DNA from: a candidate division FCPU426 bacterium
Lineage (GTDB): Bacteria > Oederibacteriota > Muellerivitia > Muellerivitales > Muellerivitaceae
Reading direction: 5' to 3'
Assembly: GCA_963719085.1 (NCBI GenBank)
Contig: CAVRAL010000004.1
Span: 800,001-864,000, forward strand
DNA: 64,000 nucleotides
Below are positions 27,001 to 30,000 of the stretch, one piece after another. Positions within the stretch are counted from its first letter, which is position 1, and each line of letters starts with the position of its first letter. The position numbers were made by a program.

Positions 27001-30000
27001 TTTCTCAAAAAGTCCCCGGTCCCGGGCTTTGAGCGTTTGAAAATAATAGCCCCGCACCACTTGTCCCCGCAGGCGAAGAAGATTGTAGACGAAATAATCC
27101 ACGTCAATTTCCTTGGCGACCTTGACCATGCCTTCCAGCGCCTCGTCGCTGTCGGTGACGAAAGGGATGACCGGCATCAAATGGATGCCGCAGGGAATGC
27201 CGTGGGCCTTGAGTTGGCGCAAAGCTTCCAGGCGCCGGGAAATGGGGACGGCGTGGGGCTCTAAAAATTTTTGTAAGGAAGGGTCCAAGGTGGTCAGGGT
27301 CATGGCCACGCCCCCATTGGAGCGGTCCACCACTTCTTTTAAGACGTCCAAGTCCCGCAGGACCAAGTCGGACTTGGTGGAAAAGACCGCGGGCCAGGCG
27401 TATTTGGCGAAAAGTTTGAAGGCGCCCCGGGCCAGCCGGTATTTTTTCTCGGCGGGTTGGTAAGGGTCGGTGGCCGCTCCCAGACTCACCCAGGCGCGGG
27501 AACGTTTCGGATTGGCGAGTTCTTTTTCCAAGACTTCCAGGATATTGACCTTCACTTGGATCTTGCGTTGGAAATCAAAGGAATTTTGGAAGCCTAAATA
27601 CCAATGGGTGTAGCGGGCGAAACAATAAGGACAGCCGTGCCGGCAGCCCCGGTATAAATTCAAACTGTAGTCATAAGGCTTGGGGCCATAGGGAAGCCGG
27701 GTGTGGTGCAGGGCCGTCTTGACCTTGATCTCGATATACTCCACCTGGCTCGGGTCATTGTCGGGCTCGACAAAAGACGGCGAAAAACGGGTGGTGGGCT
27801 CGCCCGAGTTAAAGGGCGGGTGATTCATCGCTGGCGGGCCGGCGGTCGCGGTAGTAGAAAAAAAGCGAAGGCGCGTGGGCCGGGTGAATTTTCAATTGGG
27901 CTTGGAGCCGCTCGGCGTTTTGAAGAAAGTCCCGGGTGGACTCGGTGAGTTTTTCCGGGGTGATCAAGCGGATCCATTGCAGTTCATCGTCCCAGGAAAA
28001 GGCTCCCTGGCCGGGCCCGGCGGTTTTTTCTTTTAAGAAACCCAGGAAGTCGGATAAGGCCGGCATGGATTGAAGCTTCACCCGCAAAAAAAAGCCCTCG
28101 GACCAGATAAGGAAATCCATGATTTTATATTGGTCTAAAAGCTGGCCCTGGGTGAGCGCTTGGATCAAGCGGTAAGCTTGGGGCAGGTCGGACAGCCAGG
28201 GAGCGGCGTTTTTAGTTTTGAGCGAGACTTCGTAAGTTAAGTCTTTTGGGGAAAAGCTCGAATAAGGCTTGGCGTCTTCCCGCGCGATCAAGGTTGAGCT
28301 TAAAGTAGACATGGGATTTCCTTTATTGAAGATTCTACTCCCCATAAAAGCCATCGTAATGAACGCCGATAAACGCTGATCTAAAACTGCAGAGGATTTT
28401 GTTTTTTTACCATCCGCCTTTATCGGCGTTCATCATTGCTCCATAAGGTTTTGATTCAGAGACTATGAAGAAATCAGCGGGGGCTGAAAACGCCGACGAC
28501 TTTTCCCACGACCCTGAAATCTTGGCTTTCGGAAACGATAATGGGTTGGTATTTGGGGTTGGCCGGTTCCAGCCAAACCCGGGCTCCGGATTTACGGAAG
28601 GTTTTCACCGTGGCTTCGCCGTCGACCAAGGCCACCACAATCTCGCCGGGATTGGCGTGGGCGGTTTGCTGCACGATCAGTTTATCGCCGGGCAAAATAT
28701 GGGCGTTGATCATGGAATCGCCTTTGACCACCAGCGCGAACAAGGTGCGGCCGCCTCGGGCGAGGGACGGGTCCACCACCATGGTGCTGTCCCGATTTTC
28801 CACGGCCAGCAAGGGAAGCCCCGCGGCCACCTTACCTAATATAGGAATCGAAATTCCAACGGAAGAGTCATCGGACAAACGCAGTCCGCGGGCCGTGTGT
28901 TCCTCGCGTTCTAAATAGCCTTTTTCTTCCAGCGCCAAAAGATGCTTGCGCGCGCTTTGCGGGGAGTTCCATTTAAAGTGGCGCATGACTTCGCGCACGG
29001 TGGGCGGGCGGTGGTCGTCCATCAAATGCTGCTGCACATACTCAAGCACCAGCCGCTGGGTATCGGTTAAGGTTTCTTCGGAAGGGGCCATGGTCGTCTC
29101 CTAAAAATTTTTCTTGAAAAGAATACTCTTGTATACTAGTATACGCCCGTATTCTTGGTCAAGCAAAAAAGGAGAATCCGATGACCCCTCTTTCCCTTGA
29201 AAAACAAGCCGATTCCACGCCGGGGGCTCCGGATGCGCCGGATTATCAGGGGCACCGCCAACGCCTCCGGGCCAAGTACGCTTTGTCGGGGGCTGAGGCC
29301 CTCCAAGATTACGAGCTGTTGGAGCTGATCCTTTCTTTTTCCATCCCGCACCGGGACACCAAGCCCTACGCCAAAAAATTGCTGGCGGCTTTTAAAAACT
29401 TAAAATCCATCTTGGAAGCCGATCTGGCCTCGCTTCAAAACTTGGGGGATTTGCCGCCCCAAAGCGCCCTTCAAGTGAAAGCCATGGGGGATCTTTTTAG
29501 GCTGCAGGCCCGCGAGGCTTTTAAGCGCGGGACGGTTTTAGGAAGCCCGGGGGAAGCGGCGTCTTTTTTCAGGGCCCAACTCGGAAGCCGGCCCAAAGAG
29601 GCTTTCGCGGCTTTTTTCTTGGATCACCGCAACCATTTGATCGCCTTTGAGATTTTGCAGCAAGGAACGGTGGACCAAACCGCCGTTTATCCCCGGGAAG
29701 TTTTAAAGCGCGCGCTCGACCTTCACGCCAGCGGCCTCATTTTGACGCACAACCATCCGGGCGGAAGTTTAGAGGCGTCCGAAGGCGACCGCCACCTGAC
29801 CCGGCAGCTTTCCACGGCCGCGCGGGCCATGGGGCTCACCATTCATGATCATTTAATCGTTACGGCGGAAGGGCATTTTTCGTTCCGGCAAGCGGGACTG
29901 CTGTAAAAAAAGGGGGAAGCCATGGAAAAAACACGCAAGCTGTTGAAAGAGATCCTGCCGATGTTGGGCGCTTTTCGGGTGGAAAAAAAGCGATGGCCCC

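Follow-up and report, generated by a model that had tools for sequence, protein, structure and literature searches.

Between the divergent lexA and radC genes of the genome under study lies a gap of 89 bp that holds two copies of the palindrome GWATAC-N4-GTATWC, two bases apart and offset by 18 bp (Table 1). The window analysed, a 64-kb stretch of contig C4, contains these two copies vs 0.13 expected, and none of 100 shuffles contained two. Both boxes lie where the initial annotation had placed them, and no further box was found in the 64-kb window when one mismatch was allowed.

Table 1. Positions of genes, predicted promoters and putative operators, counted along the window unless a contig is named
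Feature	Position	Strand	Evidence
Radical SAM protein gene, Rv2578c/PA0069 (SplB-like) type, below family cut-offs	26848-27828	-	Profile search
181-aa ORF after lexA, no Pfam or NCBIfam match	27809-28354	-	ORF and profile search
lexA, 205 aa, winged HTH and S24 domain	28474-29091	-	PF01726, PF00717 and TIGR00498 above cut-off
Predicted sigma70-type radC promoter, TTGAAA-17-TAGTAT	29114-29142	+	Consensus scan
Putative operator 1, GAATAC-TCTT-GTATAC, GAATACTCTTGTATAC	29121-29136	.	Sequence read, motif scan; kept in relatives with a variable N4 spacer
Predicted sigma70-type lexA promoter, TTGACC-18-TAGTAT	29133-29162	-	Consensus scan
Putative operator 2, GTATAC-GCCC-GTATTC, GTATACGCCCGTATTC	29139-29154	.	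Sequence read, motif scan
radC, JAB domain, UPF0758, divergent from lexA	29181-29906	+	Family profiles
116-aa ORF, 15 bp past radC, no family match	29922-30272	+	ORF and profile search
g279, toxin candidate	C1:297372-297659		

The lexA product scores 197.5 bits against TIGR00498 (cut-off 110.95) and no other protein of the genome matches PF01726. When aligned with Escherichia coli LexA, its VAAG cleavage site (Ala-Gly), GDSM serine and ATVK lysine are intact, and the protein is predicted to be a self-cleaving repressor whose cleavage is stimulated by RecA. All three catalytic motifs were found in 24 of 24 LexA proteins of the family; in G025, the only genome of a second family, the cleavage site reads VSAG. 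A radC match was found in 22 of 25 lexA loci. Within 1.5-kb flanks, the 181-aa ORF was matched in 18 of the 25 and the radical SAM gene in 17; these are probably the second and third genes of a lexA operon. The 116-aa ORF is possibly co-transcribed with radC. Further along the window (32861-38327, plus strand), large ORFs of 522 and 1305 aa with pilin-like N termini were noted by eye; they probably form a cluster of type IV pilus or secretion accessory genes.

A promoter consensus scan of the lexA/radC region returned two sigma70-type promoters vs 0.2 expected, one for each gene, and the two predicted promoters overlap each other. Operator 1 coincides with the spacer of the predicted radC promoter and with the -10/start region of the predicted lexA promoter, and operator 2 with the spacer of the latter and the -10/start region of the former. 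Both predicted -10 elements are formed at the junction of the two boxes. The TTGAC hexamer of the lexA promoter is found at the same place in most loci of the family.

Form of the motif and its sites in the genome

Across the genome, five exact sites for GWATAC-N4-GTATWC were found vs approximately 0.10 pairs expected from half-site counts at any fixed spacer: the lexA/radC pair and single sites before recA (C5:62073), the tcmP-DUF5131 genes (C4:890755) and g279 (C1:297299). The same five had been reported in the initial annotation, together with a one-mismatch site before radA (C4:9995); all lie where they had been described, and profile searches confirmed the identities of recA, radA, tcmP and DUF5131. 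When 107 distinct sites of relatives were used to train a weight matrix, it gave eight clear matches of 17-31 bits, with the next best at 9.4 bits in a foreign-looking stretch. The three sites added by the matrix are that at radA, one at C4:51089 (17.4 bits), for which no gene was placed downstream, and one at dinB, GTATAC-TGGT-GTATGC at C4:1066242, which overlaps the ATG. The earlier statement that dinB of this genome lacks the box was thus wrong. The same statement made for the uvr genes holds for uvrA (C1:650208), where no site was found, as was also the case at recN, dprA, comM and dnaB of this genome.

Four one-mismatch sites (C5:15238, 34224, 34799 and 34820) were discarded because they lie in an AT-rich, apparently foreign stretch. 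This stretch, C5 positions ~1-50,000, has a GC content of 26-38% vs 52-55% beyond it and short broken ORFs, and a homeobox-like fragment was seen by eye near C5:14701-14913; eukaryotic DNA has probably become joined to the bacterial contig here. Eight matches to GAATAC-N12-GAATAC were likewise set aside, as they sit in a Pro/Thr-type coding repeat. Coding repeats of the Pro/Thr/Asn type in which GAATAC recurs every 18 bp, unrelated to the box, occur at C1:862-1324, C4:91967-93323 and C4:1286718.

The 214 half-sites comprise 139 GTATAC, 63 GAATAC, 8 GCATAC and 4 GGATAC sequences; the flanks of the box are A/T-rich and the sequence of the N4 spacer is loose. In three genomes (G012, G022 and G025), the lexA boxes contain GG or GC halves and are missed by the strict W form. 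The dyad of the consensus first proposed stands and its W position does not, and the better consensus is GNATAC-N4-GTATNC, a 16-bp inverted repeat with GTATAC as its commonest half-site, in which the fixed positions hold by construction because the training sites were collected with this same pattern. A spacer of four bases is the peak in the spacer-length profile. Because GTATAC is its own reverse complement, the commonest site can be read either way, as an inverted or as a direct repeat. Across 32 genomes, sites that read only as inverted repeats numbered 34 vs 6 for the control, and those that read only as direct repeats numbered 16 vs 19; the direct-repeat reading was rejected on these counts, and the symmetry is that of an inverted dyad with a rigid spacer. 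The double reading of GTATAC-N4-GTATAC would make the system a natural test case for a switch in LexA binding mode.

Conservation of the box and probable identity of its regulator

Searches that started from the genes were carried out in the order, represented by 32 genomes, 31 from one family plus G025. Because these genomes are close kin, the counts that follow describe conservation and not independent events. An exact box was found upstream of lexA in 25 of 25 loci; within the family, 23 of 24 have the tandem pair, 18 bp apart. For recA, an exact box was found in 27 of 27 loci (0 of 540 shuffles), four of 31 loci having been left out because they had no upstream DNA and one of the 27 (L120) having been found motif-first. 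For dinB, two of 30 loci were left out on the same grounds; of the remaining 28, 26 had an exact box, one had a box with one mismatch and one (L331) had none (0 of 560 shuffles). Outside the order, no box was found at four recA loci, nor at lexA in five loci of the phylum and 67 distant loci, some of which have short upstream DNA or may be internal to operons. The earlier statement that all 32 genomes of the order carry 1-65 sites is correct as to presence, with 31 of the 32 belonging to one family, but not as to its upper end: the 31 family genomes have 4-69 sites each (median 8), the highest number being that of G012, which is inflated by IS1595 copies. All 31 together gave 10 control matches. 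In 67 other genomes of the phylum, 94 sites vs 82 control matches were counted, which is background.

A scan of a metagenome collection for the tandem arrangement returned 71 loci, of which 42 had the exact form seen in the family. Matches to lexA and/or radC were found in 41 of these 42, and the remaining one is cut by a contig end; at the 29 loci with other forms, neither gene was found (0 of 29). Of the 24 family proteins, 22 share the same recognition-helix stretch of LexA, FKWNSPQSARKHLLALEE, and the other two depart from it at one residue. In G025 the stretch is near-identical, FHWHSPQSARKHILALEQ; lexA of this genome carries one exact box and dinB a box with one mismatch, whereas LexA proteins from other orders have different helices and no box. 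These comparisons support the view that the box goes with a clade of LexA proteins whose recognition helix is near-invariant. No RecA family match was found in G025 (97% complete, 2.0 Mb; loci L376 and L377), which may reflect a gap or real loss.

At lexA/radC (in tandem), recA and dinB, the box is missing from hardly any promoter region, whereas its occurrence before umuD-like genes, radA, recN, tcmP, LigD-N genes, the RelE/ParE-fold pair and IS1595 transposases is patchy. It overlaps or adjoins a predicted promoter at its target genes, as judged by consensus scan. We put the probability at roughly 90% that the box is the operator of the LexA of this lineage, with an apparently undescribed specificity. 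The initial annotation had made the same assignment, which finds support in the gene-first results at lexA, recA and dinB, in the fixed spacer, inverted symmetry and placement over promoters, in the single LexA of the genome and in the agreement with the LexA helix. Counted against it were the close kinship of the genomes, the box-free uvrA, recN, dprA, comM and dnaB of the genome under study, G025 without RecA, the dinB locus L331, the targets outside repair and the GTATAC arrays found before other regulator genes.

At 22 of 27 recA genes, the box was seen by eye to lie wholly upstream of a TTGAC hexamer, at most of them ~7 bp upstream of the -35 element, a position that we liken to that at Bacillus subtilis recA. 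This geometry bears on whether the palindrome is instead a promoter artefact, with GTATAC(T) serving as the -10 element of the lineage and the dyad arising where divergent promoters overlap. Such an origin would fit the formation of both predicted lexA/radC -10 elements at the box junction and the overlap of the right half with TATACT at dinB, g279 and the IS elements. It was rejected on the strength of the recA geometry, with the box upstream of the -35 element, and because the box is contained in only 3 of the 89 promoter-like matches of the genome under study; furthermore, the second half is held at exactly 4 bp while the spacer sequence varies, and sites with GTATTC or GTATGC lose TATACT but keep the dyad. 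An artefact of this kind is scarcely credible.

The position upstream of TTGAC is also one that activators use, and another regulator (HxlR/MarR-like, TrpR-like or a WYL-type activator) could bind the box, with LexA as a bystander or a secondary layer. On unrelated metagenome contigs, tandem GTATAC-N4-GTATAC arrays have genes for HxlR (L240, L246 and L263) or TrpR-like regulators (L212 and L218 among them) or a phage holin gene downstream (further loci L270, L214 and L233). Because such arrays also precede HxlR and TrpR-like genes, the word GTATAC-N4-GTATAC alone does not name the regulator, and these arrays are likely operators of other regulators. The genome under study has two HxlR genes, but neither locus has a site at under two mismatches, and no WYL or TrpR-like match was found in this genome (99% complete). 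Among regulator genes, lexA alone has the box in every instance, the positions at lexA, radC, dinB and the IS elements are of the repressor type, and presence of the box follows the LexA helix. Binding by a different regulator is accordingly considered very improbable.

If the box is the LexA operator, dimers would bind each copy with one winged helix per half-site, as in the known SOS mechanism, and bound LexA would block sigma70-dependent transcription. Between lexA and radC, two dimers 18 bp apart would shut both overlapping promoters together; the box of dinB and those of the IS elements would cover the spacer, the -10 element and the start. Upon DNA damage, RecA-ssDNA would trigger self-cleavage of LexA at the Ala-Gly bond, and the genes would be switched on. 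These steps are those of the standard SOS model, in which binding of the dimer represses and RecA-triggered cleavage induces, as outlined in passages of PMC8565304.

Putative targets beyond the core SOS genes

The wider putative regulon was tallied from 76 site-bearing loci of 11 genomes, with the lexA set excluded. The adjacent gene was recA in 10, dinB in 9, umuD-like in 8, tcmP in 4 (two by NCBIfam, two by eye), Bro-N/ORF6N in 4, radA, LigD-N and DNA methylase in 3 each, dnaB in 2, and recN, dprA and comM-like in 1 each. Approximately eight loci precede small g279-like genes (partly by eye), and the rest are IS ends, belong to the mnmE-mnmG region or have no assigned gene. Some boxes precede genes unrelated to repair. 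The dnaB boxes are exact and come from two genera (L168 and L179, in G002 and G009).

The gene g279 had been described as part of a toxin-antitoxin pair. Its predicted model (pLDDT 78) gave RelE/ParE-superfamily toxins as the top 17 VIA rows of a structure search (best Z 7.3, rmsd 3.4 over 80 residues) and a best Foldseek E of 2.3e-3; these scores, all of them moderate, support a RelE/ParE-fold toxin candidate at the level of the predicted fold. The toxin half of the description is thus upheld to that extent, whereas the partner is only weakly antitoxin-like: it has weak RHH/antitoxin look-alikes (0.85-0.87) and no Pfam or NCBIfam match. A homolog of the partner gene was found at 24 of 25 homologous loci, and a box lies upstream at 9 of the 25. 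Throughout the family, small genes with the RelE/ParE fold are followed by a conserved partner, the toxin gene coming first (L378-L402, L142, L144, L158, L194 and L195), and no Pfam or NCBIfam match was obtained for the scanned genes of this set.

In G012, 44 of the 50 listed sites (of 69 in total) are two repeated sequences from IS1595 copies, and of 15 loci opened, all but the recA locus proved to be the left end of one of two elements, 986 and 988 bp long. An 8-bp target duplication was present in 15 of 15 copies measured (986-988 bp; L138 and L139 overlap). Membership in the IS1595 family is indicated by PF12762 (ISXO2-like DDE) above cut-off, with the zinc ribbon PF12760 at or below cut-off. 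Homologs of the transposase were found in 5 of 99 genomes of the phylum, all within this family (L126-L140, L191 and L338-L356 in G012, G043, G042 and G045; L185 and L190 in G005). A protein search returned a 91% homolog labelled Omnitrophica; relatives on plasmids share only 27-35% identity, none were found in viral contigs, and five other genomes gave 32-37% identity or nothing. Six variants can be told apart, with full-length transposases 61-81% identical and the G005 variant known from a 41-residue start. In all six, the box is retained between a TTGAAA hexamer and the start codon, and its spacer takes five different forms.

Across the six variants, the 11 bases ahead of the box are nearly constant as well, so the whole block may be kept for promoter or end function, and within the IS elements the box could belong to the transposon end, as a transposase site or a means of self-regulation, rather than being a site for host LexA. 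Its position, however, is ~34 bp in from the left end and beyond the short terminal repeat, and the right-end stretches examined showed no box. Furthermore, the IS boxes match the recA/dinB box of the host exactly, A/T variation included, while spacers differ among variants, and no box was found at three distant IS1595 loci (32-37% identity). A role confined to the transposon end is considered unlikely. Were the box a LexA operator here too, this IS1595 clade would have wired its transposase promoter to the box and kept it across 61-81% identity, with damage-induced transposition as the outcome, in one genome from dozens of copies.

A 16-mer near mnmG, which we take to be parS-like, has a box 3-11 bp away in 6 of 29 order genomes (L403, L404, L405, L410, L414 and L429; also L113 and L141). 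The box lies further upstream of mnmG in G017, a second site is present in G025, and two more boxes were found between mnmE-like and mnmG genes (L165 and L193). In the genome under study, there is no box by the parS-like site near mnmG. Although mnmG had been intended as a housekeeping control, with no near match in 22 of 29 loci, it is an imperfect one because 5 of 29 carry an exact box. LexA bound so close to the parS-like site could couple the SOS response to chromosome partitioning. That the specificity reaches past repair in this manner, with damage-induced IS1595 transposition and a link to partitioning, is offered tentatively, as a possibility with the odds against it. The core regulon is conventional, and possible control of IS1595 and adjacency to the parS-like site are the leads.

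Comparison with known LexA boxes

Among the matches listed in a literature search, none concerns the motif or this lineage; the search covered sources other than subscription papers, supplements and RegPrecise/CollecTF, and the motif may have been described elsewhere. No relevant paper on LexA together with IS1595 was found in the same literature. The regulatory logic is an ordinary one, and that new lineages should yield new LexA boxes is expected. The analysis supplies an SOS regulon ready for testing in an uncultured lineage for which no regulatory information was found, and a data point on change in LexA motifs in the form of one near-invariant helix and more than 100 natural sites.

LexA control of the ISCR1/2/8 transposase promoters is published, and passages of PMC13393415 name few other IS cases, IS10 and possibly IS50. 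As there, an SOS box of the host overlaps the transposase promoter of an insertion sequence; the present elements differ in belonging to the IS1595 family of DDE transposases, in carrying a lineage-specific box and in that control is predicted. If true, this example would add a further IS family to those under direct LexA control, few such cases being mentioned in those passages (PMC13393415).

The closest parallel in form is the LexA1 box of Leptospira interrogans, CTnnAC-N4-GTnnAG, the regulon of which includes lexA, recA, recN and dinP according to sections of PMC4756842. The 16-bp length, the AC-N4-GT core and a regulon with lexA, recA, recN and dinP are shared, whereas the outer base is C there and G here, so that G...C replaces the outer CT...AG, and positions 3-4 are fixed as AT here (PMC4756842). 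Table 5 of PMC2248561 gives the cyanobacterial box as RGTACnnnDGTWCB and the Gram-positive box as CGAACRnRYGTTYC. Both have in common with the present box the AC-N4-GT core, conserved promoter positions and autoregulation of lexA, as set out in parts of PMC2248561 and PMC13416735, and the cyanobacterial box additionally shares TAC-N4-GT (PMC2248561). The half-sites differ: G-(T/A)-ATAC here, with GTATAC itself a 6-bp palindrome, vs RGTAC in cyanobacteria and CGAAC in Gram-positive bacteria (PMC2248561). The GAAC half-site of the Gram-positive (Cheo) box is replaced by GNATAC, and in place of the G before TAC in RGTAC an A stands in 107 of 107 training sites, by construction, and also in the gene-first matches at recA and dinB.

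SOS regulons of Balneolaeota and Bacteroidetes were worked out by comparative genomics and validated by gel shift, as reported in portions of PMC7739468 and PMC8565304. They resemble the present one in having a lineage-specific motif over lexA, recA, error-prone polymerases and a radical SAM gene, and differ in the motifs themselves, a TTACA-type direct repeat and GGA-N5-TCC as well as CTAA-N5-TTAG (PMC7739468, PMC8565304). The box had been called new in the initial annotation, and the term fits its specificity, not the kind of element: it apparently represents a new specificity, with new outer bases, inside the known AC-N4-GT class.
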